The position numbers and the translations under genes are program-made. From an uncultured Opitutales bacterium (GTDB lineage Bacteria > Verrucomicrobiota > Verrucomicrobiia > Opitutales > Intestinicryptomonadaceae), in NCBI GenBank assembly GCA_934660865.1, contig CAKUIA010000005.1:30001-62000 (forward strand): a stretch of 32,000 nt of DNA, read 5' to 3'. Below the pieces are notes generated by a model. The model saw nothing but the letters and a program-made list of their open reading frames with translations. It ran no database searches and was not told where the DNA came from. Shown here piece by piece: positions 3,444 through 29,927 of the stretch (position 1 is its first letter; each line of letters starts with the position of its first letter).

Positions 3444-3521
3444 ATGAAAATCGCGTTTACAAACAACAACTGGTGGCGTTGGTCGGCTAAAATATTAGGC
3501 GGCTGGCTATCCTATTGTTAA
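3444..3521 (+). CDS. trpL: trp operon leader peptide (25 aa, MKIAFTNNNWWRWSAKILGGWLSYC)
   Basis: Hand-translated short ORF, too short for the ORF track. It has 4 Trp codons in 25, three of them in WWRW at 3471-3482. It lies in the 254-nt carA-trpB gap, directly upstream of a terminator/antiterminator pair and of trpB. Confidence 0.8.
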   Translation: MKIAFTNNNWWRWSAKILGGWLSYC

Positions 3522-3582
3522 AACGCACGGCGTTTGGGTTTACAAAAAATAGAACCGAAAAAAGAGGATAAGGCTAACCGCC
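3498..3582 (+). promoter_or_regulatory. Candidate antiterminator of the trp attenuator (3498-3512 pairs with 3566-3582)
   Basis: Hand pairing of GGCGGCTGGCTATCC with GGATAAGGCTAACCGCC gives 12 Watson-Crick and 2 G.U pairs, one mismatch and one 2-nt bulge. The 3' arm overlaps the left arm of the terminator. The 5' arm lies inside the last codons of the leader ORF. Confidence 0.6.
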
Positions 3583-3598
3583 CTATCCTCTTTTTTTT
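3561..3598 (+). terminator. Rho-independent terminator (trp attenuator)
   Basis: Stem GAGGATA(A)GG 3564-3573 pairs with CCTATCCTC 3582-3590 (9 bp with one bulged A). An 8-T run follows at 3591-3598 and an A-run precedes it. It sits about 70 nt upstream of the trpB ATG. Confidence 0.85.
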
Positions 3599-3666
3599 CG
3601 CAACAAACACATTCCTAAAAAATTTAAAAAGCACACAAAAATTTAAAACAAAAAAGGCACAACAAA

Positions 3667-4857
3667 ATGGACAGCAACTACAAGGTAGACAACAACGGTT
3701 ATTACGGCGAATTCGGCGGAGCGTACATTCCCGAAATTTTGCGCAAAAATGTGGAGCAACTGCAAGAGGCATTCTTTTCGGCAATGAAAGACCAAAGCTT
3801 TTTGGACGAATTTTACGCCCTTTTGCGCGACTATGTGGGAAGGCCCAGCCCCCTTTATTTCGCAAAGAAGCTCAGCGAAAAATACGGGGCCAAAATATAC
3901 CTGAAAAGGGAGGACTTAAACCACACCGGCTCGCACAAAATAAACAACGCCATAGGCCAAATTTTGCTGGCAAAAAGAATGGGCAAAACCAGAATTTTGG
4001 CCGAAACGGGCGCGGGCCAGCACGGGGTTGCCACGGCAACCGCCTGCGCGCTTATGGGGCTAGACTGCACCGTATTTATGGGCGAAACCGACATTAAACG
4101 CCAAAAGGCAAATGTCGAAAAAATGCAAATGCTGGGGGCTAAAGTATACTCGGTTACAAGCGGCAACAAAACCCTTAAAGACGCAACAAACGAGGCAATA
4201 AGATACTGGTGCTGCAACCCCGACACCTACTACCTTATAGGCTCGGTTGTAGGCCCGCACCCCTATCCCGAACTTGTAGCGAAGTTCCAGTCGGTTATAA
4301 GCGAAGAGATAAAAAAGCAGCTTCTCGAAAAAGAGGGGCGCGACTACCCCGACTATGTAATAGCCTGCGTTGGCGGCGGCAGCAACGCGGCGGGCGCTTT
4401 CTACAACTTTTTGGACAACCCAAAAGTTAAGCTTATAGCGGCCGAAGCGGGCGGCATGGGCGTACAAACAGGCAAAAGCGCCGCCACTTTGGCCCTGGGC
4501 AGCCTGGGCGTTTTGCACGGCTCTAAAAGCATTGTAATTCAGGACAAAAACGGCCAGGTAATAGAGCCCTATTCGATTTCGGCCGGGCTGGACTACCCAG
4601 GCATTGGCCCGCTTCACGCATATTTGGCAAAGGAAAAGAAAATGACGCCCTGCGCCGTAAACGACGACGAAGCCCTGCAGGCCGCCTATTTGGCGACGCT
4701 AAAAGAGGGCATTATTCCCGCGCTGGAATCGGCGCATGCCCTTGCAATGCTCGAAAAGATTGCCTTTAAGCCGACCGACATTGTGGTTGTAAACGTATCG
4801 GGCCGCGGCGACAAGGATATGCCGACATACTTGGCAAACAGAAAGGTTGTTAAATAA
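3667..4857 (+). CDS. trpB: Tryptophan synthase beta chain (TrpB1 type)
   Basis: 396 aa. [13 protein letters not shown]-lysine motif [29 protein letters not shown]. Confidence 0.95.
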
Positions 4858-4858
4858 A

Positions 4859-6256
4859 ATGGTTAAACTTACCCAAATTGTACGCAAAGTTGCAGGCGAC
4901 TTGCAAACGCCCGTAGGCCTCTACCTAAAAATAAGGGATATAGGCGAAAAGTCGGCGCTGCTGGAAAGCTCGGATTTTCACACCCAAAACAACAGCTATT
5001 CTTTTGTGTGCGCAAAGCCCATAGGCCATTTTAAGCTGGACAAAAACGTGTGCGAAACGGCGTATCCGAACGGCGAAACCGTACGCGAAACCGTGCAGAG
5101 CCATTCTTCTGCAATATCGCTGCTAAAAAAATATTTGGCGAACTACCGGTTCGAAGGCGGCAACCCCCTGCCATCGAACGGGTTTTTCGGCTACACTTCG
5201 TACGACTGCGCCGAGCATTTCGACGCCGTAAAATTCGCCAAGCGCGCCCCCAACGAAAAGGACGCCCCCGAAATGTACTATGTGCTATACCGCTTTACGG
5301 TTTCGCTAAACCATTTCAATAACGAGCTTGTTGTCGTCGAAAACCTGCCCGAGGGCGAAAGCTCGCAAATGGACGAATTTTTGGCCGTAATACACAACAA
5401 CAGTTTTGCCGAATATTCGTTTGAAAGGGTGGGCGCCCCCAACTACGAAACTTCGGGCGAAAAGTTTATGCAAAACGTAGCCGAGGCCATAAAGAGGATA
5501 AAGCTCGGCGACATTTTCCAGATTGTGATTTCGCGCGGGTTTAACACCCGTTTTAAGGGCGACGACTTTAAGGTATACCGCGCCTTGCGCCGCATAAACC
5601 CTTCGCCGTACCTCTTCTATTTCGATTTCGGCGGCTTTAGAATTTTCGGGTCTTCGCCCGAAACGCACTTAAAGATTGTGGGCGACACCGCAAGCATAGA
5701 CCCCATTGCGGGCACGTTCAAAAGAACGGGCAACGACGAAAAAGACTCGCTTTTGGCCGCGGCCCTTTTGAAAGACCCGAAGGAAAATTCCGAGCACACA
5801 ATGCTTGTAGATTTGGCGCGAAACGACCTTTCGAGAAGCTGCCTGCACACAAAGGTTGAATTTTTAAAGCAAATTCAATACTACTCGCACCTGATACACA
5901 TGGTTTCGAGAGTGTCGGCAAAAGTGCCCAGCCCCGACAAAAAGCTAGACGTTCTCGCCGACGCATTCCCAGCCGGCACGCTAAGCGGCGCTCCGAAAAT
6001 AAAGGCCATGCAAATTATAGACGAGCTTGAAAGCGACAGGCGTTCGGTATACGGCGGCTGCATAGGCTTTATAGGCTTTAACGGCGACTTAAACCAGGCA
6101 ATAACCATAAGGACATTCTTCAGCAAAAACAACACCCTGTACTTCAAGGCGGGGGCCGGCATTGTTGTAGACAGCAAGCCCGAAAACGAATTGCAGGAAA
6201 TAAACAACAAACTCGGCGCTTTAATGGCGGCGCTCGACAAGGCCTCGGAGGAATAG
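4859..6256 (+). CDS. trpE: Anthranilate synthase component I
   Basis: TrpE/chorismate-binding family (LLESSD, NPSPYLFYFDF, GTLSGAPKIKAMQII, YGGCIGFIGFNGD). The track start at 4847 is a TTG overlapping trpB. I prefer the ATG at 4859, 1 nt after the trpB stop. Confidence 0.9.
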   Translation: MVKLTQIVRKVAGDLQTPVGLYLKIRDIGEKSALLESSDFHTQNNSYSFVCAKPIGHFKLDKNVCETAYPNGETVRETVQSHSSAISLLKKYLANYRFEGGNPLPSNGFFGYTSYDCAEHFDAVKFAKRAPNEKDAPEMYYVLYRFTVSLNHFNNELVVVENLPEGESSQMDEFLAVIHNNSFAEYSFERVGAPNYETSGEKFMQNVAEAIKRIKLGDIFQIVISRGFNTRFKGDDFKVYRALRRINPSPYLFYFDFGGFRIFGSSPETHLKIVGDTASIDPIAGTFKRTGNDEKDSLLAAALLKDPKENSEHTMLVDLARNDLSRSCLHTKVEFLKQIQYYSHLIHMVSRVSAKVPSPDKKLDVLADAFPAGTLSGAPKIKAMQIIDELESDRRSVYGGCIGFIGFNGDLNQAITIRTFFSKNNTLYFKAGAGIVVDSKPENELQEINNKLGALMAALDKASEE

Positions 6257-6260
6257 CAAA

Positions 6261-6827
6261 ATGAAAACCCTTTTGTTCGACAATTACGACTCTTTTACAT
6301 ACAACATTGCAAACGCCCTTAGGGAGCTTGGCATAGAAAACCTAAGCGTTGCGCGAAACGACAAAATATCGGTCGAAGAAATGAGAAAGTTCGACAAGAT
6401 AATATTTTCGCCCGGGCCGGGCATTCCCAAAGACGCGGGCGTTATGGAAAGCGCAATAAAAGAGCTTGCCTCCGAAAAAACGATATTGGGCGTATGCTTG
6501 GGCCACCAGGCAATAGGCGAAGTTTTCGGCGCAAAGCTGGAAAACCTAAGCCGCCCCTTCCATGCGGTGCAGTCGCAAATGAAAATCGTAAAAACAACCC
6601 CCCTGTTTAACGGCCTAAGCGACGGATTTTTGGCGGGGCGCTACCACTCGTGGGTGGTATCCAAAGAAAATTTCCCCGACTGTCTGGAAATTAGCGCGGT
6701 AGAGGAAAACGGCCAAATTATGGCGCTGCGCCACAAACAATACAATGTGTTCGGGCTGCAATTCCACCCCGAATCCATACTTACCCCCGAAGGGGCCAAA
6801 ATATTGGACAACTTTTTAAAGCTCTAA
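6261..6827 (+). CDS. trpG: Anthranilate synthase component II (glutamine amidotransferase)
   Basis: 188 aa class-I GATase (FDNYDSFTYN, GVCLGHQAIG, LQFHPESILT). Confidence 0.92.
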   Translation: MKTLLFDNYDSFTYNIANALRELGIENLSVARNDKISVEEMRKFDKIIFSPGPGIPKDAGVMESAIKELASEKTILGVCLGHQAIGEVFGAKLENLSRPFHAVQSQMKIVKTTPLFNGLSDGFLAGRYHSWVVSKENFPDCLEISAVEENGQIMALRHKQYNVFGLQFHPESILTPEGAKILDNFLKL

Positions 6828-6831
6828 AAAA

Positions 6832-7827
6832 ATGAAGGCTATTTTAACAAAACTTTTTTCGGGCAAAACGCTAAGCTTCGACGAGGCAAAAAACGTAATG
6901 CTGGGCGTTTCCACCCACGGCTATAACAACGCGCAGCTGGCGGCGTTTATGTCGGTTTTCCTTATGCGCGCCATTGCCCCGCAAGAGCTTTCGGGCTTTT
7001 CGGCGGCAATACGCGAAACGCAAACCAAGCTTAACATAAACGCCGACAACGCGGTAGACATTGTGGGCACGGGCGGCGACGGCAAAGACACATTCAATAT
7101 CTCTACCCTTTCGTGCTTCGTTTTGGCGGGAGCCTCCTACAAGGTTGTAAAGCACGGCAACTACGGCGCAAGCTCGGCAAGCGGCGCCTCGAATGCGCTG
7201 GAAAACTGCGGGGCAAAATTCACAAACAACCCCGACATTCTGCAGCGCTCTTTGGACGAATCGAATATGCTTTATATGCACGCGCCCCTTTTCAATTCGG
7301 CGTTAAAGGTTGTAGCCCCCGCAAGAAAGGAGCTGGGAGTAAGAACGTTCTTTAACCTGTTGGGCCCCCTGCTAAACCCGCTTAAGCCAAAAAATATGCT
7401 GCTTGGCGTATACAGCCTAAAGCTTGTAAGGCTGTATAAATACATACTCGAAAACACGGTTGACAACTACGCCATTGTGCATTCGCTAGACGGCTACGAC
7501 GAAATTTCGCTTACGGGCAAATTCAAAATTGCGTCGTCTAAAAACGAGGGGGTTTTCGCCCCCGAAGACCTTGGGCTGCCGCGCTGCAAACAAAGCGATT
7601 TGGGCTGCCAAAGCAACGCGCAAATTGCCAAGGAAATTTTTATAGACGTTTTAAACTGCAACGCAACGCCGCAGCAGGAAAACTGTGTTTTGGCAAATTC
7701 GGCGGCAGCAATAGGCATACTCGAAAAAGGCAAAAGCTTTGCGGAATGCCTTGAAATTGCGCGCGAAAGCCTGCGCGGCAAAAAGGCGCTGGCGTGCTTT
7801 AAAAAATATTTGGAGATAAACAAATGA
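6832..7827 (+). CDS. trpD: Anthranilate phosphoribosyltransferase
   Basis: 331 aa. DIVGTGGDGKDTFNIST and KHGNYGASSASG motifs typical of TrpD. Confidence 0.92.
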   Translation: MKAILTKLFSGKTLSFDEAKNVMLGVSTHGYNNAQLAAFMSVFLMRAIAPQELSGFSAAIRETQTKLNINADNAVDIVGTGGDGKDTFNISTLSCFVLAGASYKVVKHGNYGASSASGASNALENCGAKFTNNPDILQRSLDESNMLYMHAPLFNSALKVVAPARKELGVRTFFNLLGPLLNPLKPKNMLLGVYSLKLVRLYKYILENTVDNYAIVHSLDGYDEISLTGKFKIASSKNEGVFAPEDLGLPRCKQSDLGCQSNAQIAKEIFIDVLNCNATPQQENCVLANSAAAIGILEKGKSFAECLEIARESLRGKKALACFKKYLEINK

Positions 7828-8597
7828 ACATTCTCGAAACGATTTTGGAAAACAAAAAAGCCGAAGTTGCAGCCGACAAAAAAAGAGTGGCAATTTCCGA
7901 CTTTAACGGCTTTGAATATTTTTCGAGAAAGTGCATTTCGCCGAAGGCAGCGTTTTTAAAAAACAAAACCTCTCTTATTTGCGAATTTAAGCGCAAGTCG
8001 CCCTCAAAGGGCGACATTGCCCCGAACGCCTCTCCCGAAACGCAGATTCCGCAATATATAAAAGGCGGGGCCGCCGCCCTTTCGGTGCTTACCGACAACA
8101 AGTTTTTCGGCGGCTCGGCCAACGACCTGCTTTGCGCCAGAAAGCTTGCAAACATTCCCGTTTTGCGCAAAGACTTTGTTGTAGACGAATACCAAATATA
8201 CCAGGCAAAGGCTTTGGGCGCCGACTTTGTTTTGCTGATAGCGGCCGCCCTAGGCAAAACGCAGTGCAAAGACTACGCCGACATTGCCCACGGCTTGGGC
8301 ATGGAGGTTTTAACCGAATTGCACGATGTTTTAGAGCTTGAAAAGCTGCCCGACTCTTCGGATTTGGCGGGCGTAAACAACCGCAACCTGGCAAACTTTA
8401 AGTGCTCGTTTCAAAGCGCAAAAGATTTGGCAAAGCTTATAGGCAAAAACTTTGTAAAGGTTGCCGAAAGCTCGATAAAAACGCCCGAAGACGTGCGCGA
8501 ATTAAAGAGCATGGGCTTTTCGGCATTTCTCATAGGCGAAAGCCTTATGCGCAGCGGCAATCCAGCGGCAACAATCCAGGAATTTTTAAAGGAATGA
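7824..8597 (+). CDS. trpC: Indole-3-glycerol-phosphate synthase
   Basis: 257 aa. ICEFKRKSPSKG, LSVLTD..FFGGS, LRKDF motifs. ATGA overlap with the trpD stop. Confidence 0.92.
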   Translation: MNILETILENKKAEVAADKKRVAISDFNGFEYFSRKCISPKAAFLKNKTSLICEFKRKSPSKGDIAPNASPETQIPQYIKGGAAALSVLTDNKFFGGSANDLLCARKLANIPVLRKDFVVDEYQIYQAKALGADFVLLIAAALGKTQCKDYADIAHGLGMEVLTELHDVLELEKLPDSSDLAGVNNRNLANFKCSFQSAKDLAKLIGKNFVKVAESSIKTPEDVRELKSMGFSAFLIGESLMRSGNPAATIQEFLKE

Positions 8598-9211
8598 AAA
8601 TAAAAGTTTGCGGATTAAAAGACGCCGAAAACGCGACAAATGTTGCAAAGCTAAATGCGGATATGCTGGGCTTTATCTTCTACGAAAAGTCGCCCCGCAA
8701 CGCGTTCGGCATTAAGGCAAGTTTTATAAAAAGCCTAAATGCCGCGCAAAAGGTTGCCGTTTTTGTAGACGAATCCATCGAAAATATCCGCAAAATATGC
8801 GCCGAAAGAGACATTAAAATAGTGCAGCTTCACGGCGGCGAAAGCCCCGAATTTTGCAAAGAGGCAAAGGCTCTGGGCTTTGTTGTAATAAAGGCCTTTC
8901 AAATTTACGACAAAGGCGATTTCGAAAAAATTGCCGACTACGCTTCGGTTTGCGACTATGCGTTGCTCGACACCAAGTGCGACACCTACGGCGGCAGCGG
9001 CAAAAAATTCAACTGGGGATTGCTTGGAACATACCGATGGCAACTGCCCTTTATTTTAAGCGGCGGCATTTGCGAAGACGACGCCGAAGATATTTTGAGC
9101 ATAAAAAACAAAATGTTTTGCGGGGTAGATTTAAACAGCCGCTTTGAAAACGGACAAATGCTAAAAGACTGCAACAAACTTAAAAACTTTATGGAAAAAA
9201 TTAGAGGATAA
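8594..9211 (+). CDS. trpF: Phosphoribosylanthranilate isomerase
   Basis: MKIKVCGLKDAENA... is the typical TrpF N-terminus. The track ORF from 8402 is an out-of-context K/R-rich extension inside trpC. The ATG at 8594 overlaps the trpC stop (ATGA). Confidence 0.9.
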   Translation: MKIKVCGLKDAENATNVAKLNADMLGFIFYEKSPRNAFGIKASFIKSLNAAQKVAVFVDESIENIRKICAERDIKIVQLHGGESPEFCKEAKALGFVVIKAFQIYDKGDFEKIADYASVCDYALLDTKCDTYGGSGKKFNWGLLGTYRWQLPFILSGGICEDDAEDILSIKNKMFCGVDLNSRFENGQMLKDCNKLKNFMEKIRG

Positions 9212-9215
9212 AAAA

Positions 9216-9989
9216 ATGAACAAACTAAACGAATTGCTCGCAAAAAAAGACAAGAACCTGCTTTCGGTATATTTTACCGCGGGCTACCCGAACTTGAACG
9301 ACACTACAAAGATAATAGAGGCCCTCGACAAAAACGGCGTAGACCTTATAGAAATAGGCCTGCCCTTTTCCGACCCCATTGCCGACGGGCAAACCATTCA
9401 GGAAAGCTCGCATTTGGCCCTCGTAAACGGAATGACAACACAGCTTATGTTCGAGCAGCTTAAAACGCTGAAAAACACGAATGCGGTTTTAATTTTAATG
9501 ACCTATTTAAACTTGGTTGTGCACTACGGCTTTGAAAACACATTAAAGATGTGCAAAGAGTGCAACATTTCGGCGATGATTTTGCCCGACTTGCCGCTTG
9601 AAGAATACGAGCGCGACTACAAAGCCCTTTGCGAAAAATACGGCATAAAAATCGTTATGCTCATAAGCCCCGAAAGCTCAGACGAAAGGATAAGGGCCAT
9701 AGACAACGCAACAGATTCGTTTATCTATATGGTTTCAAGCGCGTCGGTAACGGGCACAAAAGACGATTTCGACGAAAGGCAGTGCGCATATTTTAAACGC
9801 ATTAGCGATATGAACCTAAAAAACAAACGCCTTATAGGCTTCGGCATTTCCAACAAAAAAACAAAGGATAAGGCCAACAAATATTCTTCGGGCGTTATAA
9901 TAGGCAGCGCCTTTATAAAAGCATTGGCGCAAGAACCGAACAACCCCGAAAAGGCGGTTAAAATTTTTCTTGAAAAACTGGAAAAGTAA
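9216..9989 (+). CDS. trpA: Tryptophan synthase alpha chain
   Basis: 257 aa. YFTAGYP, DLIEIGLPFSDPIADGQTIQ, GFGIS motifs. AGAGGA Shine-Dalgarno-like sequence upstream. Confidence 0.93.
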   Translation: MNKLNELLAKKDKNLLSVYFTAGYPNLNDTTKIIEALDKNGVDLIEIGLPFSDPIADGQTIQESSHLALVNGMTTQLMFEQLKTLKNTNAVLILMTYLNLVVHYGFENTLKMCKECNISAMILPDLPLEEYERDYKALCEKYGIKIVMLISPESSDERIRAIDNATDSFIYMVSSASVTGTKDDFDERQCAYFKRISDMNLKNKRLIGFGISNKKTKDKANKYSSGVIIGSAFIKALAQEPNNPEKAVKIFLEKLEK

Positions 9990-22352: not shown

Positions 22353-24299
22353 TTACTTGTTGTCCTTTTTGTCGTCGTCTACAACTTCAAAGTCGGCGTC
22401 TACGGGGCCTTGTTTGTTTGTCGAAGACTGTTGTTGCTGCTGCGCCTGCTGGGCTTGTTGAGCCTGTTGGGCGCCCGCGCCCTGCGGATACAAATTCTGG
22501 GCTTCGGCCTGCAAGAGAGCCGTTAGCGCGTCGATTTGCGCCTTAAGCTCCTCCTTTGTGGCGTTCGATTTTGCAAGAACGTCTTTTGCCGTTTTAAGGG
22601 CGGCGTCTATCTTGCTTTTCGAAGCGGTCGGAACTTTGTCGCCTGCGTCTTTAAGCTGTTTTTCGATACTGTAAACCGCGTTGTCCAACTGGTTTTTAGT
22701 TTCGATAAGCTCTTTTTGGGCGTTGTCTTCGGCGGCGTGCATTTCGGCTTCCTTACGCAACTTTTCTATTTCCTCCTTCGACATGCCGCTGGAGTTTGTA
22801 ATAGTTACGTTCTGCTCTTTGCCGGTGCCCTTGTCTTTTGCCGAAACGTGCAAAATGCCGTTTGCGTCTATATCGAACGTTACTTCGATTTGGGGCAGAC
22901 CGCGCGGAGCGGGAGCTATGCCGTCGAGCCTGAAGTTGCCGATAAGCTTGTTGTCTTTTGCCAAAGGTCTTTCGCCCTGCAATACCCTGATGTCTACAGC
23001 CGTTTGGTTGTCCGAATAGGTGGAAAATACCTGGCTTTTCTTTGCGGGAATTGTGGTATTTCTGTCTATCATTGCAGTAGATACGCCGCCTGCGGTTTCT
23101 ATGGCCAGTGTCAGGGGAGTTACGTCGAGCAAAAGAACGTCGTTAACTTCGCCCTGCAATACGCCGCCTTGAATTGCCGCGCCGCGAGCTACAACTTCGT
23201 CGGGGTTTACGCCCTGGTGGGGGGCTTTGCCTGCCAGCTGGGCCGCAATTTCAACAATCTTGGGCATACGGGTCATACCGCCGACGAGAACCAACTCGTT
23301 AATGGAGCTTTTTGTAAGGTCTGCGTCTTTAAGGCACGCTTCGAAAGGCGCCATTGTGCGGTTTGCCAAGTCTTCGGTAATCTGCTCGAGCTTTGCCCTT
23401 GTAAGGGTTACATTCAAGTGTTTCGGGCCCGAAGCGTCGGCCGTAATAAAGGGCAAGTTAATGTCGGTTTGTTGGGCTGTAGAAAGCGCAATCTTGGCCT
23501 TTTCGGCTTCCTCCTTTAACCTTTGCAGTGCCATGGGGTCTTTGCGCAAGTCTATGCCGTTTTCCTGCTTAAAGCCGTCTACCAACCAGGATATTATAGC
23601 TTCGTCCCAGTTGTCGCCGCCTAAGTGCGTATCGCCGTTGGTGGCTTTAACTTCAAATACGCTGTCGGCAATTTCCAATATGGAGACATCGAAAGTACCG
23701 CCGCCTAAGTCGTATACGGCAATGGTTTCGTCTTTGTCTTTATTGTTGTTTAAGCCGTAGGCCAAAGCGGCCGCAGTGGGCTCGTTTATAATTCTAAGAA
23801 CCTCCAAGCCCGCAATCGTGCCCGCGTCTTTTGTAGCCTGACGCTGTGCGTCGTTAAAATAGGCGGGAACGGTAATAACGGCCTTTGTAATCTTTTCGCC
23901 CAAATATGTTTCGGCGTCGGCCTTCATTTGTTGGAGAATGTCGGCCGAAATCTGTTCGGGGGTAAAGCGCTCGGTTTTGCCCGCAACTTCGCATTCAATC
24001 AAAACTCCGCCATTGGGGCCTTCTACTACCTTGTAGGGAAGGTTTTTGGCTTCTTCCTGAATTTCGCTAAATTTGCGGCCTATTAAACGCTTTGCCGAGA
24101 AAATCGTGTTGTGGGGGTTTGTTATGGCCTGCCTTTTTGCGGCTTGACCAACCAAACGTTCGCCCGTTTTTGTAAAAGCGACAACCGAAGGAGTTGTACG
24201 CGCTCCCTCTCTATTGGGGATAACCTGCGACTGGCCGCCTTCCATAACAGCCATGCAGGAGTTTGTTGTACCTAAGTCAATACCTAATATTTTACTCAT
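22353..24299 (-). CDS. dnaK: Molecular chaperone DnaK (Hsp70)
   Basis: 648 aa from [18 protein letters not shown] (canonical DnaK N-terminus, AAGGAAA 7 nt upstream). The 52 extra residues in the track ORF (start 24455) are intergenic read-through. [20 protein letters not shown] and the C-terminal [10 protein letters not shown] tail are present. Confidence 0.96.
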
Positions 24300-24311
24300 A
24301 CCATTTCCTTT

Positions 24312-24327
24312 AGCATATTCCGTGCCA
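24312..24327 (-). promoter_or_regulatory. Near-consensus sigma-54 (-24/-12) element immediately upstream of dnaK
   Basis: Minus strand reads cTGGCACGgaatATGCTa against the consensus TGGCACG-N4-TTGCW. The GG and GC doublets are at the exact spacing and only the first T of TTGC differs. Confidence 0.35.
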
Positions 24328-24364
24328 GTTTTAAGATTTTTACATAACTGGCTATTTATAAATG

Positions 24365-24394
24365 TATATCGGAGCTTTTCGCGGTTTTTTGCAA
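24365..24394 (-). promoter_or_regulatory. Sigma-70-like promoter candidate for dnaK
   Basis: Minus strand reads TTGCAA (24394-24389), 18-nt spacer, GATATA (24370-24365). It would give a 5'UTR of about 60 nt. Confidence 0.35.
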
Positions 24395-24445
24395 AAATTT
24401 TCGTTTGCCGCAGTGCGACATATTGTCGCGCCTGCCCGCGCAAAG

Positions 24446-24474
24446 TGTGCCACAAAGGCGGCTAATTTGGCACA
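24446..24474. repeat. Inverted repeat TGTGCCA-N15-TGGCACA in the dnaK/GH28 divergent region
   Basis: Perfect 7-bp arms at 24446-24452 and 24468-24474. It lies 120-160 bp upstream of the sigma-54-like element. Confidence 0.6.
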
Positions 24475-24571: not shown

Positions 24572-26023
24572 ATGAAGTATATATCGTTAAAAACATCTGT
24601 TATGTTCGCCTTAATGGGGGCGGCAACTTCGCTTTTCGCGGAATCGCAAGACGTTAAAAATTTCGGCGCAAAAGCCGACGGCGCGTTCGACAACACCGCC
24701 GCAATTCAGGCCGCAATAGACAAATGTAGCGCAACGGGCGGCGGCGAGGTTATTTTCTCGGAAACGGGAACGTATATGACAAGCACTTTCGACATTAAGG
24801 ACAACGTTTGCCTTAATATTCCCGTTGGCACCATATTAAAGGGCAACCCGCCCAATAAAAACTACAGGTTGCATGCGCTTGTTGCGGCAAACAAGGTAAG
24901 CAACATCGGCATTACCGGCGGCGGCATAATAGACGGCAACGGAGCCAGCTTTGAAATAAGAGACTGCGCACCCAACAGGGCAAGGCTTGTTTCCATAAAC
25001 GACTGCAAAAACGTAAAGATAGAAAACATAACGCTGCAAAATCCCGCCACTTGGACGCTTTCGCTAGGCTATAACGACACGGTTATAGTAAAGAACGTAA
25101 AGCTTTTCTCGATTTGCAACTTCAACAACGACGGCATAGACATTGCCTCGAAAAACGTTGTAATTAGCGACAGCATTATAACCTGCGACGACGACGGCAT
25201 TTGCATTAAAAATATGCGCAAAGACCGCAAATTTGTCGTGGAAAATATTACCGTTAAAAACTGCGTGGTTGCCTCGAACTGCAACGCCTTTAAAATAGGC
25301 ACCGAAACTTGGGGCGACATTAAAAACATCACGGTTTCAAACTGCGTTGTGCGCCAAACGCCCTTTTCGCACCTAAGAAACTGGAACAAGAAAAACCAAA
25401 AGCAAAAATACTTTTTCCTTGAAGAATCGAACAATGCAATTACGGGCATTGCGATAGAATCGGTAGACGGCGCGCAGGTTGAAAACATCGCATTTTCGAA
25501 CATGGTGCTTACGGGCGTTCAGTGCCCCCTGTTCATAAGGGTTGGCCACCGCAACAAGGACGAAAAGAAAAGCGCCATACGCAATGTTGTAATTAAAAAT
25601 GTCATCGCAAAAAGCGCAAGCTGCATACCCAACACGATTTCGAGCATACCCGAACACACTCTAGAAAACGTTGTAATTAGCGACAGCATTTTCGACATGA
25701 AAGGCTGTGTAGACGAAAGGACGAACGAAACTCTCGCAAGCAAGCCCGTGCCCGAAAACATAAAAAGCTACCCCGAAGTTAGAAGCTTTGGCATAGTTCC
25801 CGCCTACGGTTTTTATATGCGCCACGCAAAGAACATTACCGTAAACAATGTTCAGGTGCGCTACCAAAAAGAGGACTTTCGCGCCCCATTCTATTGCGAC
25901 GACATAGACTACCTTCGCATAATGAACTGCAAAATACAGCCCTCGGCAAACGGCGACGAAGACCCAATCGTTCTTAAAAACGTTAAAAACGCGTCTTTAA
26001 AGAACAATTCGCCATTGCTGTAA
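24572..26023 (+). CDS. GH28 family glycoside hydrolase (polygalacturonase-like parallel beta-helix), secreted
   Basis: 483 aa. Signal peptide ...ATSLFAESQD. NFGAKADGAFDNTAAIQAAIDKC start of the pectate-lyase fold. NNDGIDI and CDDDGICIK catalytic Asp motifs. NAFKIGTE (RIK-like). Confidence 0.88.
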   Translation: MKYISLKTSVMFALMGAATSLFAESQDVKNFGAKADGAFDNTAAIQAAIDKCSATGGGEVIFSETGTYMTSTFDIKDNVCLNIPVGTILKGNPPNKNYRLHALVAANKVSNIGITGGGIIDGNGASFEIRDCAPNRARLVSINDCKNVKIENITLQNPATWTLSLGYNDTVIVKNVKLFSICNFNNDGIDIASKNVVISDSIITCDDDGICIKNMRKDRKFVVENITVKNCVVASNCNAFKIGTETWGDIKNITVSNCVVRQTPFSHLRNWNKKNQKQKYFFLEESNNAITGIAIESVDGAQVENIAFSNMVLTGVQCPLFIRVGHRNKDEKKSAIRNVVIKNVIAKSASCIPNTISSIPEHTLENVVISDSIFDMKGCVDERTNETLASKPVPENIKSYPEVRSFGIVPAYGFYMRHAKNITVNNVQVRYQKEDFRAPFYCDDIDYLRIMNCKIQPSANGDEDPIVLKNVKNASLKNNSPLL

Positions 26024-26112: not shown

Positions 26113-27804
26113 CTATTCGCCTGCACGGCTTAAATTTACCGCCGAAACCAGCGCCTTTAAGCCCGCAAGCTCTATGCTTGGGTCTACACCGCAGGCCCAG
26201 AAAAGCCCGCCCGAATTTTTCTCTATGCAAATGTAGGCGGCCGAATTTGAGGCCGACCCCGCCCCTATTGCATGCGAGCGGTAGTCTTTTACCTTAAAAT
26301 CTTTTAGCCCGGCCTTTTCCATTGCATTTACAAAGGCGTTGATTGGCCCGTTGCCGGAGGCCGCAATTTCCGCCGCAATGCCGTTTACGGTAATATTTGC
26401 AGCAAGGTTAACGTTCGAGCTGTCGGCGTCGGAAAGCTTTTCCACCTTATGGCTTATAAGCTTTATCGGGCTTGAAAGGTTTACAAACCTGTCGCAAAAC
26501 AGCTTGTATATTTCGTTTGCCGAAAGCTCCTTGCCGAGTTTGTCGGCCTGGGCATTGACATAGTTGCCAACTTCGGGGTGCATGGCCTTTGGCAGGTCGA
26601 AGCCGAAATCGGTATTCAAGATATAGGCTACGCCGCCCTTGCCGCTTTGCGAATTTATGCGTATAATGGCCTCGTAGTCTCTGCCTATGTCTTTGGGGTC
26701 TATCAGCAAATAGGGAACCTCCCAAGCGCAGTTTTCGTCGCCCGTCTTTTTGCGCATGTCCATACCCTTTTTAATGGCGTCTTGGTGCGAGCCGCTAAAG
26801 GCGGTAAATACCAAGTCGCCCGCATAGGGCAGGCGCGGCGGCACTTTCATTGAGGTGCATTTTTCGTATTCGCGCACAATTTCGGGCAGGTTCGAAAAAT
26901 CAAGCTCGGGATCTACGCCCTCGGCAAACATATTTAGGGCAACGTTTACAATGTCGAGGTTGCCCGTTCTTTCGCCGTTGCCGAAAAGCGTGCCCTCTAC
27001 CCTGTCGGCACCCGCAAGCAGGCCAAGCTCGGTAGAGGCAACGCCCGTGCCCCTGTCGTTGTGGGTGTGCACGCTAATAAGCACGGTTTGCCTGTCCGAA
27101 ATATGGCGGCTTACCCACTCTATTTGGTCGGCATAAACGTTGGGCATTGCATACTGCACGGTTTCGGGCAAGTTTATTATAATTTTGTTGTCTACCGTAG
27201 GCTGCCAAACCGCCTTTACCGCCTCGCATATTTCAAGCGCAAATTCAACTTCGGTATCCGAAAAGCTTTCGGGCGAATATTCAAGCGTAATTTTTGTGCC
27301 CTCTTTTTCGGCGGCTTTGGCGTATTCTTTAACAATCTTTACGCCGTTTACGGCCAAGTCGACAATCTCGGCCTTGCTCATTTTAAATGTAATTTTGCGC
27401 TGCAGTACCGATGTGCTGTTGTATAGGTGCACAATGGCGTGTTTTGCGCCCTTTAGGGCGTCGAATGTGCGCTTTATCTGCGCGGGTTTGCTTTGCGTTA
27501 AAACCTGAAGCGCAACGCCTTCGGGCACAAGATTGCCCTCTATAAGCCTTCTTAAAAAGTTGTATTCGGTGTCGCTTGCGGCGGGAAAGCCCACTTCTAT
27601 CTGCTTAAAGCCAACTTTTAGCAAGGTGTTGTACAACTCAAGCTTTTCCTCTATATTCATAGGGGTGGCCAATGCCTGGTTGCCGTCGCGCAAATCTACA
27701 CTGCACCAAATCGGCGCTTTTGTAATATGCGCCGAGGGCCACTTTCTGTCGGGCAGGCTTACAAAGCTGCTCCTTTTGTATTTTCTCAACAGTTCCTTGT
27801 TCAT
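26113..27804 (-). CDS. leuA: 2-isopropylmalate synthase, long (type 2, actinobacterial-like) form
   Basis: 563 aa. RKWPSAHITKAPIWCSVDLRDGNQAL, HTHNDRGTGVA, GNGERTGN, and the C-terminal LeuA allosteric/dimerisation domain. Confidence 0.93.
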   Translation of the reverse strand: MNKELLRKYKRSSFVSLPDRKWPSAHITKAPIWCSVDLRDGNQALATPMNIEEKLELYNTLLKVGFKQIEVGFPAASDTEYNFLRRLIEGNLVPEGVALQVLTQSKPAQIKRTFDALKGAKHAIVHLYNSTSVLQRKITFKMSKAEIVDLAVNGVKIVKEYAKAAEKEGTKITLEYSPESFSDTEVEFALEICEAVKAVWQPTVDNKIIINLPETVQYAMPNVYADQIEWVSRHISDRQTVLISVHTHNDRGTGVASTELGLLAGADRVEGTLFGNGERTGNLDIVNVALNMFAEGVDPELDFSNLPEIVREYEKCTSMKVPPRLPYAGDLVFTAFSGSHQDAIKKGMDMRKKTGDENCAWEVPYLLIDPKDIGRDYEAIIRINSQSGKGGVAYILNTDFGFDLPKAMHPEVGNYVNAQADKLGKELSANEIYKLFCDRFVNLSSPIKLISHKVEKLSDADSSNVNLAANITVNGIAAEIAASGNGPINAFVNAMEKAGLKDFKVKDYRSHAIGAGSASNSAAYICIEKNSGGLFWACGVDPSIELAGLKALVSAVNLSRAGE

Positions 27805-27833
27805 ATTTAGTGTGTTATTCCATTTTATCGCAT

Positions 27834-27875
27834 AAAAAAAGGCAACGCTATTTTATATAATATGCGCCGCCTTTT
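27834..27875 (-). terminator. Rho-independent terminator (leu attenuator)
   Basis: Minus strand reads AAAA-GGCGGCGC (27871-27864), 15-nt AU loop, GCGTTGCC (27848-27841; 6 GC and 2 G.U pairs), then 7 T (27840-27834). It ends 29 nt before the leuA ATG. Confidence 0.7.
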
Positions 27876-27916
27876 CTTTTAAAAAGTGTGTTTTTTTAAA
27901 TGCAAAATCAGCGCAC
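27862..27916 (-). promoter_or_regulatory. Candidate antiterminator of the leu attenuator (27916-27904 pairs with 27875-27862)
   Basis: Hand pairing of GTGCGCTGATTTT (last two sense codons, stop and 4 nt of the leader) with AAAAGGCGGCGCAT gives 9 Watson-Crick and 3 G.U pairs and 1 mismatch. It sequesters the left arm of the terminator. Confidence 0.5.
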
Positions 27917-27973
27917 TGCAACGGCTTCGAGACGAAGTCGCAACAATAGCCCGGATAATGCAATGTTTTTCAT
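27908..27973 (-). CDS. leuL: leu leader peptide (21 aa, MKNIALSGLLLRLRLEAVAVR)
   Basis: Hand-translated short ORF, not in the track. It has 6 Leu codons in 21 (tta, cta, ttg, ttg, ctt, ctc) clustered as LSGLLLRLRL. It lies directly upstream of a terminator/antiterminator and of leuA. The ATG is 1 nt after the phosphohexomutase stop. Confidence 0.65.
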   Translation of the reverse strand: MKNIALSGLLLRLRLEAVAVR

Positions 27974-27974
27974 A

Positions 27975-29927
27975 TTAGCTTAATTTAGAACGAATATCGG
28001 CTTCTTTGCCGAGCGAGTCAAGCAATTTGTCGAGATTTTCGCGCGCGTCGGCTTTCGCCTTTAAAAGGGCTTCGTCGCTAGAGGCCGCTTCTTTGGCAAA
28101 AACATAGAACTTGATTTTCGGCTCCGTGCCCGAAGCTCTAACTGCAATCTTATAGCCGTTTTCAAGCTCGTAAAAGAAGAATGTTTCTTTGGGAACTGCA
28201 ATGTTGTCGGCGTCTAAAATCGTGTCGGTTGCAAAATTGGTAAATTTTGCGACTTTTTGCCCCGCCAATTCCTTTAGGGGCTGTTCTACCAAGCTTTTTA
28301 GAATGTTGGCAATCTTTTGCGAGCCGCTTGCGCCCTCGTAGTAAATGCTCTTTAAATCCTCCAAAAAGTATCCGTATTTTTTGTAGATTTCGTCGAGATA
28401 CTCCTCCACGCTTTGGCCTTTGCTTTCCAAGTCGGCAAGCATTTCCGAGAACATTATCACCGCCGAATTTGCGTCTTTGTCTCTAAGCGAGTCTACGCCC
28501 AAAAAGCCGTAGCTTTCCTCGTCGCCCATAACAAAGAATGTGGAATATTTCTGCAAAAGCTTTGCCCTTTCAAGATACTTCGAGTTGCGGTAGTCGAAAT
28601 CGGGCATGGCGGCCAAAAGCTTTTTTTCGTAGGCGAGCATGCGCGCGCCAATCCATTTAAAGCCCGTAAGAACGTTTATGCACTTTACGCCCTCGCCCTC
28701 GGCTATGGCGTCCTGCAAGGGCGTTGTTACAAACGACTTTATTATTGCGCAGTTTTTCGGGCTCTCGATTATGCCGAGCTTTTTCATTTTGCCTATTCTG
28801 TAGGCTATAAGCAGCGCCCCTATGGTATTTCCCGTAATCAGGCGCATTTTGCCGCTTTTTGTGCGAATGGCCGCCCCCATTCGGTCGGCGTCGGGATCGG
28901 TGGCAACAAGGCACTGCGCGCCGCATTTTTCGGCCAAAGCCATACCCATCGACATTGTTTCGGGATATTCGGGGTTTGGCTGCTTTACCGTGGGGAAACG
29001 CGGGTCCATAACCATTTGCTCTTCCACAAAAACGGGGTCCAGCCCGAAGTGGCGCATAACCTTAGGGCACATAACCGCCCCCGTGCCGTGTATTGCCGAA
29101 TATACTATTTTGGGCTTTCTTTCCCTTAAAATTTCCTTGTCTACAACGCAGTCTTCTATGCTCGAAACATAGTCGTTTTCCACGCTTTCGGGAACGGTTA
29201 AAACACCGGCGGTATCTATTGCAACAAACTTTGCGGCCTCGGCCAGCGGTGTTTTGTTTACGTTGTCTACAATACCTTCGGCGTGGGGGCTTGTTGCCTG
29301 CGCACCGTCGTTAAAGTAAACTTTGTAGCCGTTGTCGGAGGGCGGGTTGTGCGAGGCGGTAATAACAATGCCCGCGGTTGCGTTCATTTTCCTTACCGTA
29401 TACGAAAGTTGCGGGGTTGAACGTGCGCCGCAAAAGACGTAGGCAGTTCCCCCCATTTTTGTCCAAACGCTTGCGCACAAGTCGCAAAAGTGTTTCGAAA
29501 AGTGGCGCACATCGTGCGCAATTACCAGCAGGGGTGTGCCCGACTTCGTGTTTTTGCAAAATTCGGCGCAATATTTATACAGGCCCAAAGTTGCCCTTGC
29601 CACGATAATGTCGTTCATATTGTTCGAGCCTACCGCCGCATGCTCGGGCGTGCCCTGTGCGGAAACTTTGCCCAACTCGAATTTTGTGGGGTTTTTTGCG
29701 ATGGTTTTGCCGCGCATACCGCCCGTGCCGAACGCCAAGTTTTTAAAAAAGCGGTCGTTTAACTCGTCAAACTTTTTTTCGGACAGCAATTCGCCTATCG
29801 AATTTAACGCCCAATCCTCCAAAAAGCCGCCGCCAACCCAGTCTTTTAGGTTTTGCGCCGCGCTATCTAGCAGTTTATTGTCGTTTTTTGCGGAATCAAT
29901 TTGCTCTAATAAAAGTTTAACGTTCAT
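27975..29927 (-). CDS. Alpha-D-phosphohexomutase, PgcA/PGM2-like (phosphoglucomutase/phosphomannomutase family)
   Basis: 650 aa. FGTGGMRG and active-site serine loop ITASHNPPSDNGYKVYFNDG. Metal-binding DPDADR. GDEESYG sugar-binding loop. Confidence 0.9.
   Translation of the reverse strand: MNVKLLLEQIDSAKNDNKLLDSAAQNLKDWVGGGFLEDWALNSIGELLSEKKFDELNDRFFKNLAFGTGGMRGKTIAKNPTKFELGKVSAQGTPEHAAVGSNNMNDIIVARATLGLYKYCAEFCKNTKSGTPLLVIAHDVRHFSKHFCDLCASVWTKMGGTAYVFCGARSTPQLSYTVRKMNATAGIVITASHNPPSDNGYKVYFNDGAQATSPHAEGIVDNVNKTPLAEAAKFVAIDTAGVLTVPESVENDYVSSIEDCVVDKEILRERKPKIVYSAIHGTGAVMCPKVMRHFGLDPVFVEEQMVMDPRFPTVKQPNPEYPETMSMGMALAEKCGAQCLVATDPDADRMGAAIRTKSGKMRLITGNTIGALLIAYRIGKMKKLGIIESPKNCAIIKSFVTTPLQDAIAEGEGVKCINVLTGFKWIGARMLAYEKKLLAAMPDFDYRNSKYLERAKLLQKYSTFFVMGDEESYGFLGVDSLRDKDANSAVIMFSEMLADLESKGQSVEEYLDEIYKKYGYFLEDLKSIYYEGASGSQKIANILKSLVEQPLKELAGQKVAKFTNFATDTILDADNIAVPKETFFFYELENGYKIAVRASGTEPKIKFYVFAKEAASSDEALLKAKADARENLDKLLDSLGKEADIRSKLS
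27993..28021 (-). promoter_or_regulatory. Sigma-70-like promoter candidate for leuL-leuA, embedded in the 3' end of the upstream coding region
   Basis: Minus strand reads TTGACT (28021-28016), 17-nt spacer, GATATT (27998-27993). About 20 nt upstream of the leader ATG. Confidence 0.45.

Follow-up and report, generated by a model that had tools for sequence, protein, structure and literature searches.

The gene leuA, which encodes 2-isopropylmalate synthase (IPMS), the first committed enzyme of leucine synthesis, is solitary in a 32,000-nucleotide (nt) stretch of contig CAKUIA010000005.1 from an uncultured Opitutales bacterium (the whole stretch is hereafter called the window), with no other leu gene nearby. 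How might the expression of this gene be matched to the leucine supply of the cell? The 170-nt spacer between leuA and an upstream gene of the phosphoglucomutase/phosphomannomutase family (pgm-like) contains a short, leucine-rich open reading frame (ORF) followed by a hairpin and a run of uridines. Here, we describe evidence that this element is likely to be a ribosome-mediated (leader-peptide) transcription attenuator coupling leuA to the supply of charged tRNA-Leu. Our reading is based on codon statistics, RNA folding, strain conservation, analogous leaders at orthologous leuA genes and the presence of a trp leader in the same window. From these we infer that the leader is translated, that the terminator is active, that switching is kinetic and that the locus responds to leucine.

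Attenuation by leader peptides is a textbook mechanism, described chiefly in the Proteobacteria and also in the Actinobacteria and some Firmicutes. A full-text search of the literature did not turn up any description of such attenuators from Verrucomicrobiota or Opitutales; its coverage was incomplete, and the result is absence of evidence only. The original prediction, made from the letters of the DNA, had proposed a Leu leader with a terminator/antiterminator switch for the solitary leuA, and this core reading was supported by every computational test that we made.

Leader ORF and alternative RNA helices upstream of leuA

Read base by base on the minus strand, the leader ORF MKNIALSGLLLRLRLEAVAVR extends from an ATG at 27973-27971 through 21 sense codons to a UGA stop at 27910-27908. 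Leucine occupies codons 6, 9, 10, 11, 13 and 15, which places six leucines within ten residues, as had been proposed. The Leu codons are interleaved with the rare Arg codons CGA (codon 12) and CGU (codon 14). Three of the six Leu codons in the leader are rare as well: in the genes of the window (9,120 codons), UUA, CUA and CUC each encode only 7-9% of the leucines. CGA and CGU encode 2.6% and 5% of the arginines, respectively. The use of these codons might just as well stem from the base pairing that helix 1:2, described below, requires. At least six leucines in ten residues are found in 17 of 47,344 stop-free segments read in six frames (0.036%), and the leader is the sole ORF of this density among the 151 short ATG ORFs (10-40 amino acids (aa)) of the window. 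Because this density is rare and unique among the window's short ORFs, we judge the Leu enrichment to be solid. The earlier worry that the enrichment is statistically weak was unfounded; the weak part is the antiterminator pairing. Additionally, a scan of the window's short ORFs for amino-acid runs returned two intergenic ORFs that precede cognate biosynthetic genes, this Leu leader and a Trp leader. The ORF upstream of leuA is thus both short and enriched in the codons of the amino acid whose synthesis the downstream gene serves.

Between the leader ORF and leuA, the structure of the RNA predicts an intrinsic terminator. It begins 33 nt past the leader stop and reads AAAAGGCGGCGC-AUAUUAUAUAAAAUA-GCGUUGCC-UUUUUUU (27875-27834). 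Its stem pairs GGCGGCGC (27871-27864) with GCGUUGCC (27848-27841) through six G-C and two G.U pairs, and is completed by a UAUU/AAUA stem on its inner side and an A4/U4 extension on its outer side, after which come seven U residues (27840-27834). From the end of the U-run to the leuA ATG (27804) there are 29 nt, in agreement with the coordinates first reported for the hairpin, and this distance leaves little room for a separate promoter. A simple terminator scan of the window did not list the hairpin. We attribute the miss to the loop limit of the scan (3-8), because there is a bulged inner stem within the outer one, and do not take it as counter-evidence.

The 5' arm of the terminator, AAAAGGCGGCGCAU (27875-27862), can also pair with GUGCGCUGAUUUU (27916-27904) to form an antiterminator of nine Watson-Crick and three G.U pairs with a single A/G mismatch. 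A base-by-base recount agrees with the pairing originally described, and the antiterminator 5' arm does overlap the end of the leader ORF. The layout had been regarded as a minimal one of two helices. Folding of the RNA, which had been suggested as a check, found these alternative helices and, in addition, a third, helix 1:2 (27962-27901), and the trp leader also folds with such a hairpin. The layout is thus the classical set of three mutually exclusive helices, 1:2, 2:3 and 3:4. The inner part of helix 1:2 pairs the Leu/Arg codon block (27949-27933) with 27929-27913 (codons 15-20), with Leu codon 15 closing the innermost stem, and its outer stem joins 27962-27954 with 27909-27901 and includes the stop codon. 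The helix sequesters the whole antiterminator arm, and it is kept in all strain haplotypes. Folded alone it reaches -24.7 kcal/mol (z -3.0), and 1 of 200 shuffles is equally good. For the complete leader region of 186 nt the folding energy is -50.9 kcal/mol, whereas shuffled sequences give -34.3 +/- 3.5 (z -4.7); none of the 200 shuffles folds as well. Its minimum-free-energy (MFE) structure consists of helix 1:2, an A/U-only hairpin and the terminator (27877-27835). The A/U-only hairpin stands alone in the terminated fold, and in the antiterminator it caps the long stem-loop.

The position of a translating ribosome would decide between these structures. A ribosome covers about 12 nt of message on the 3' side of its A site. 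The last Leu codon of the leader starts at 27931, so that the footprint of a ribosome stalled there ends at about 27919, 3 nt before region 2, and from the coordinates and the size of the footprint a ribosome at the leader stop codon would cover region 2 entirely. To represent a ribosome stalled on Leu codon 9, 11, 13 or 15, we masked all RNA as far as its 3' edge and left the terminator 3' arm absent; the antiterminator was the MFE structure in all four cases. In these folds GUGCGCUG (27916-27909) pairs with CGGCGCAU (27869-27862) in a long stem-loop of -16.4 to -17.9 kcal/mol.

The attenuator that we propose would operate as follows (coordinates are collected in Table 1). The transcript would begin at a promoter within the last part of the pgm-like gene or at that of pgm; in the latter case the TAAtATG junction allows read-through with reinitiation at the leader ATG. 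When leucine is plentiful, the ribosome would reach the UGA codon and its footprint would cover region 2; region 3 would then pair with region 4, and the resulting terminator with its U7 tract would stop RNA polymerase at about 27834, before leuA. A leader that is not translated would be terminated as well, with helix 1:2 locking region 2. When leucine is scarce, the ribosome would stall on one of the six Leu codons and melt the 5' strand of helix 1:2, and its 3' edge, reaching only to about 27919, would leave region 2 free. Region 2 would pair with region 3 once the latter is transcribed and before region 4 exists, and the antiterminator would permit read-through into leuA.

Table 1. Features of the proposed leuA attenuator, followed by its neighbouring genes and the trp leader (window coordinates)
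Feature	Coordinates	Strand	Remarks
leuL-like leader ORF, MKNIALSGLLLRLRLEAVAVR + UGA	27973-27908	minus	start, stop and frame kept in all 8 strain haplotypes
Putative regulatory Leu codons UUA(6), CUA(9), UUG(10), UUG(11), CUU(13), CUC(15)	27958-27929	minus	read from the sequence
Helix 1:2, anti-antiterminator and possible pause hairpin	27962-27901	minus	-24.7 kcal/mol, z -3.0
Region 2, antiterminator 5' arm, GUGCGCUGAUUUU	27916-27904	minus	spans the stop codon, codons 20-21 before it and 4 U after it
A/U-only spacer hairpin, UUUAAAAA...UUUUUAAA	27900-27878	minus	folds; sole site of strain indels
Region 3, terminator 5' arm, AAAAGGCGGCGCAU	27875-27862	minus	common to antiterminator and terminator; strain-invariant
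Predicted intrinsic terminator, helix 3:4 + U7	27877-27834	minus	fold -18.0 kcal/mol; stems strain-invariant, sole change (27855) in the loop
leuA, 2-isopropylmalate synthase, long 'yeast/actinobacterial' type, 563 aa	27804-26113	minus	TIGR00970, NF002991
Phosphoglucomutase/phosphomannomutase-family gene (pgm-like), 650 aa	29927-27975	minus	PGM_PMM domains; TAA 27977-27975
Candidate sigma-70-like promoter, TTGACT-17 nt-GATATT	28021-27993	minus	consensus scan; inside the pgm-like 3' end
Trp leader ORF, MKIAFTNNNWWRWSAKILGGWLSYC (WWRW)	3444-3521	plus	upstream of the trpB-E-G-D-C-F-A operon (3667-9989)

Conservation of the leader among strains

Ten loci of the source species (L081-L086 and L101-L104) were found, and all have the arrangement pgm-leader-leuA. 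The 90% cluster of LeuA includes MDY6068155.1 ('MAG: Opitutales bacterium'), and one of its members is identical to the window's protein. The strain alignment comprises the window and seven of the ten loci (eight rows), and the strains compared have a LeuA identity of 96.8%. Between the window and L081-L086, the 170-nt pgm-leuA spacer differs at 3.5-5.9% of its positions, as against 13-19% at the third codon positions of pgm and leuA. The spacer is thus about threefold more conserved than third codon positions (binomial p ~6e-6), and it is under purifying selection.

The distribution of the changes follows the proposed structures. The variable sites in the eight rows are 27964, 27953-51, 27920, 27918, 27916, 27901, 27897, 27881, 27855, 27829, 27816 and 27814, and the indels are small and confined to the A/U spacer hairpin. 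Variable sites are absent from the Leu codons, the terminator stems and the antiterminator core (27915-27904). All six Leu codons and both Arg codons (27958-27956 and 27949-27929) are invariant at the nucleotide level, the variable sites 27953-27951 falling in codons 7-8. The leader peptide varies outside the Leu block, at codons 4, 8, 19 and 20 (I4F, G8T, A19V and V20M), and its start, frame and stop are kept. Such a pattern is typical of leader peptides, and is expected where translation over the Leu codons counts and its product does not. At paired sites of helix 1:2, C27918U converts a G-C to a G.U pair, U27920A gains a pair and A27901G converts a U-A to a U.G pair. Furthermore, G27916A replaces a G.U with an A-U pair in both helix 1:2 and the antiterminator. 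The helices 1:2 of the strains fold at -25.5, -25.0 and -24.1 kcal/mol.

This invariance bears on the notion that the hairpin is a constitutive partial terminator, which would set the pgm:leuA ratio within one operon while the ORF, perhaps translated by coupling to pgm, senses no leucine. The stop-start arrangement TAAtATG, which suggests translational coupling to pgm, and the thermodynamic preference for the terminator over the antiterminator fold both agree with such a device. However, a partial terminator explains neither the cluster of Leu codons nor its strict nucleotide invariance, nor the specific recurrence of short Leu-rich ORFs before leuA in different phyla (see below), and we regard it as very unlikely.

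Leader peptides at other leuA loci and in known systems

Several observations weigh against an attenuator at this locus. Taken alone, the antiterminator duplex (-14.4 kcal/mol) is matched or exceeded by 12% of shuffled duplexes (-11.5 +/- 2.3 kcal/mol; p = 0.12), obtained by pairing dinucleotide shuffles of the intervening segment with the terminator arm. We accordingly rejected the duplex as stand-alone evidence, and the case for the antiterminator consists of the pairing itself, its emergence as the MFE structure when the ribosome footprint is masked, the fit of the ribosome geometry and the improvement brought by G27916A. When the terminator 3' arm is present, the terminator fold is the stabler one (-24 to -26 against -16 to -18 kcal/mol). 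Because the terminator is favoured at equilibrium, antitermination must be kinetic, as it is in classical attenuator systems. The leader ATG, 1 nt after the pgm stop, has no Shine-Dalgarno sequence, although leuA, the trp leader and many other genes of the window are likewise without one, and the assignment of the candidate promoter rests on a 9/12 match to the consensus. Finally, comparative support for exactly this element is limited to strains of one species. The protein collection contains no LeuA of 71-97% identity; at seven loci of the closest LeuA relatives (65-71% identity; L087, L088, L090, L092, L096, L098 and L099) there is no Leu-rich ORF; and a covariance model built from the leaders of more distant Verrucomicrobiota (R1, below) found no match at 27834-27973.

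The relatives at 65-71% identity have a different gene neighbourhood, commonly argG-ugd-leuA, in which leuA is preceded either by an ordinary terminator of the upstream gene, 35-50 nt away, or by a 73-nt spacer. They raise the question of whether the hairpin and U7 of the window are a plain terminator of the pgm-like gene as well, with the Leu ORF a chance frame in its 3' untranslated region and a leuA promoter overlapping or following the terminator. The closest relatives, with an ordinary terminator 35-50 nt before the leuA ATG and no leader ORF, provide a precedent. L099 has a fair TTGATT-17-TAAATT match that overlaps the U-run, the window has a weak analogue of it (TTGCCT at 27845-27840, 17 nt, TGGAAT at 27822-27817), and the antiterminator pairing alone is not significant. 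Yet this account would require that a Leu cluster, an event on the 1-in-1000 scale, had fallen by chance exactly upstream of leuA. It does not accommodate the purifying selection on the 100 nt from the pgm stop to the terminator, the significant hairpin that the same stretch forms between the Leu codons and the antiterminator arm, or the presence of a Trp leader of the same build in the same window. The putative downstream promoter, moreover, lacks the A at position 2 of the -10 element and fails the scan criteria. We consider a plain terminator unlikely.

Two features of these relatives can be recorded beside this comparison. Leaderless close relatives (L088:1470-1500, L092:1455-1500 and L098:1455-1500) share CTTGCGTTTT about 35-45 nt before the leuA ATG, where it may serve a proximal leuA promoter as its -35 element; its equivalent in the window is TTGCCTTTTTTT, inside the terminator. 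The loci L094 and L095 (positions 1328-1480 in both), with a LeuA 68% identical to that of the window, have a different short ORF, MANISYINILAHRLHIEFGNLLLG, which ends in LLLG-stop. A GAGCGCG...CGCGCUUUUAGUUU hairpin comes next, about 20 nt before leuA, together with a U-rich tract. This ORF may be another variant of a Leu leader.

Leu-rich leaders recur at more distant leuA genes. In a contig search for this leuA type, in which the best match among those listed was only 61% identical, we asked for short sense-strand ORFs with at least five leucines in ten residues within 250 nt upstream of leuA. Such an ORF is present in 33 of 76 GTDB genomes from several phyla, the 76 being those among the matches listed that have this leuA type and enough upstream DNA; in the same set of matches the antisense strand gave 2 of 76, and the region 1 kb further upstream 0 of 68. 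Seventeen Verrucomicrobiota loci, many of them annotated as Limisphaerales or subdivision 3, share the leader MNRNLNLNLLLNALLLRRAAVGF (alignment A2: L006:2829-2957, L009:2704-2834, L021:2619-2748, L022:2826-2955, L027:2830-2953 and 12 more). Their RNAalifold consensus contains a 1:2 hairpin, which pairs Leu/Asn codons with AAVGF codons, and a terminator that is 99.4% paired and has six compensatory cells. The pairing between the leader end and the terminator arm is 86% complete in register, against 27-53% when the arms are slid, with a conserved central mismatch and little covariation. Most of these leaders start with GTG, and the terminator, CCCCACUGCC/GGCGGUGGGG, lies about 50 nt before leuA. 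The leader of the window is like them in phylum, in leuA type and in a design that links Leu codons, leader 3' end and terminator 5' arm, but theirs is GC-rich, with CUG codons and mostly a GTG start, whereas that of the window is AU-rich with mixed codons. The covariance model R1, built from the 17 members and run with filters off, found only ordinary terminators in the window as its best matches (for example, 26126-26047). Because R1 misses the window leader, we call the resemblance an analogy and do not count the element as a demonstrable member of this family.

Spirochaetia and Desulfobulbaceae have their own forms of a Leu leader upstream of leuA, and Leu-rich leader ORFs are common before long-type leuA genes in several phyla. 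Phylogenetic footprinting of leuA upstream regions, proposed earlier as a check, gave a divided answer: the element is kept in strains and analogous leaders occur in distant genomes, but none was found at seven loci of relatives at 65-71%. The suggestion of a lineage-wide regulatory style likewise holds in part. The window has both a trp and a leuA leader, and distant Verrucomicrobiota have unrelated-looking Leu leaders, but seven loci of the closest relatives lack one.

It is possible, if doubtful, that the attenuator is a recent and independent invention of this Opitutales species, that this leuA type is a hotspot of repeated de novo leader birth, and that the leader is perhaps coupled to pgm. 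Independent invention is suggested by the closest relatives, which at 65-71% identity and with argG-ugd-leuA lack a leader, and by the absence of detectable kinship to the Limisphaerales-type family. A hotspot is suggested by the differently built Leu leaders found with the same leuA type in at least four to five lineages (Limisphaerales, Akkermansia-like, Spirochaetia, Desulfobulbaceae and Actinobacteria). If reinitiation coupled to pgm takes place, the element would be an attenuator within an operon and would take its input from translation of the gene before it. The leader of the window leaves the known mechanism unchanged; it may be useful for the study of the repeated origin of such switches, and for annotation, because gene callers and Rfam overlook small ORFs and attenuators of this kind.

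Akkermansia-like bacteria and Verrucomicrobiaceae have leaders of a further type, M..ATALLLLSLRLTQG (the MTSSATALLLLSLRLTQG type), about 100-180 nt upstream of leuA (L037, L047, L050 and L052). Each is followed by a conserved GCGGCCCGCG...GCCGUCACG-loop-CGGC hairpin region with no U-run, which suggests a different read-out, possibly Rho-dependent or translational. In Actinobacteria, the LEU element is described as a pseudoknot in which the base stem is formed by Leu codons and the leuA Shine-Dalgarno box, often with no terminator (Seliverstov et al., 2005; PMC1262725). Like the leader of the window, it has an upstream ORF with a run of Leu codons before leuA, and Leu codons that take part in RNA pairing; in the window, however, the partner of the Leu codons is 27929-27913, within the leader itself, and the leader is followed by a U7 terminator. 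A counterpart of the LEU-element base stem was not found, the leuA start being unpaired in the MFE structure and without a Shine-Dalgarno sequence; pseudoknots as such were not searched for.

These leaders are the background for the view that the spacer of the window is some other RNA sensor, that is, a T-box, a riboswitch, a protein-binding leader or a LEU-element-like block of leuA translation, with the ORF incidental. The hairpins without a U-run in Akkermansia-like MTSSATALLLLSLRLTQG-type leaders and the proposed pairing of Leu codons with the leuA Shine-Dalgarno box in Actinobacteria (PMC1262725) together show this leuA type to be preceded by several kinds of mechanism. For the locus of the window such a sensor is nevertheless very improbable: no T-box, leader or riboswitch family of Rfam matched even at E<=10, the leader is AU-rich and only about 140 nt long, its Leu codons pair with its own 3' end and not with the leuA start region, and a canonical U7 terminator is present. 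In the Rfam search, all 4227 families gave no match at gathering thresholds in the whole window, and nothing relevant was found at E<=10 in 27700-28100. Leu_leader (RF00512), T-box (RF00230) and the known riboswitches were ruled out by the absence of such matches.

The proposed attenuator can be compared with two leucine leaders of known function. The enterobacterial leuL (RF00512; leuLABCD of Salmonella and E. coli) is also a short ORF in which Leu codons, rare ones among them, are clustered, and is also followed by three overlapping helices, 1:2, 2:3 and 3:4, that end in an intrinsic terminator and are chosen by ribosome position. It has four consecutive Leu codons, where the leader of the window has six dispersed ones of five kinds among Arg, and it controls leuABCD, where the leader of the window would control a solitary long-type leuA. 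The two show no sequence or covariance-model similarity, and the leader of the window differs further in its host phylum, Verrucomicrobiota, and in an ATG that abuts the stop codon of the upstream gene. In the Salmonella leu leader, which is known for rare regulatory codons, the native codons are CUA, and codon choice matters for sensitivity (PMC1183508). The second system is leuL-leuA of Corynebacterium glutamicum, and we take its LeuA to be of the same long IPMS type as that of the window. It is described as a transcription attenuator with the leader MTSRANLLLLRRGGSQRS (PMC8709942, citing Neshat et al., 2014). It is the nearest known case for a solitary leuA and shares with the window the solitary gene, a Leu run followed by Arg residues, and transcription attenuation. 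It differs in that phylum and sequence are unrelated and that in the window Leu residues alternate with Arg (LLLRLRL).

Neighbouring genes, transcript start and the trp leader

The product of leuA scores 740 bits with TIGR00970 (cut-off 697) and 786 bits with NF002991. The next gene downstream is a convergent GH28 pectinase (24572-26023, plus strand). Directly after leuA, between the two genes, lies a strong 14-bp terminator, AAAACCCGAAGC...GCUUCGGGUUUU (26081-26049, minus strand), which is probably bidirectional, with A- and U-tracts on both sides.

Upstream, a single nucleotide separates the stop of the pgm-like gene from the leader ATG (TAAtATG, 27975-27973), and this junction, invariant in all strains, suggests possible translational coupling or reinitiation that would feed the attenuator. 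The candidate promoter inside the pgm-like gene would start a transcript about 13 nt before the leader ATG, that is, with a 13-nt 5' untranslated region. It is invariant in the 8 strain haplotypes, which says little since it lies inside coding sequence. Between the terminator and leuA, the only promoter candidate was the weak TTGCCT-17-TGGAAT match, which fails the scan rules.

The Trp leader of the window is followed by a hairpin and a U8 terminator at about 3556-3599 (plus strand). It folds with a z of -5.0 into an internal leader hairpin (1:2) and the terminator, and no Rfam family matched it. Like the leader of leuA in the same genome, it combines a cognate-codon ORF (WWRW), an internal hairpin and a U-rich terminator, with neither a Shine-Dalgarno sequence nor an Rfam match; it differs in the amino acid, has no sequence similarity to the Leu leader and precedes a full operon of seven genes. 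The Trp leader supports the view that the organism uses leader-peptide attenuation in more than one pathway, and this Opitutales bacterium probably does so for both trp and leuA. The gene order of its trp operon, with trpB first, is unusual.

Two minor observations concern the rest of the window. The pectin- and glycan-degrading genes that it contains allow a guess that the host is gut-derived. The DnaK ORF at 22353-24455 (minus strand; 700 aa, TTG start) should be about 50 codons shorter, as the profile match starts at residue 53 and the sister contigs encode 650 aa.

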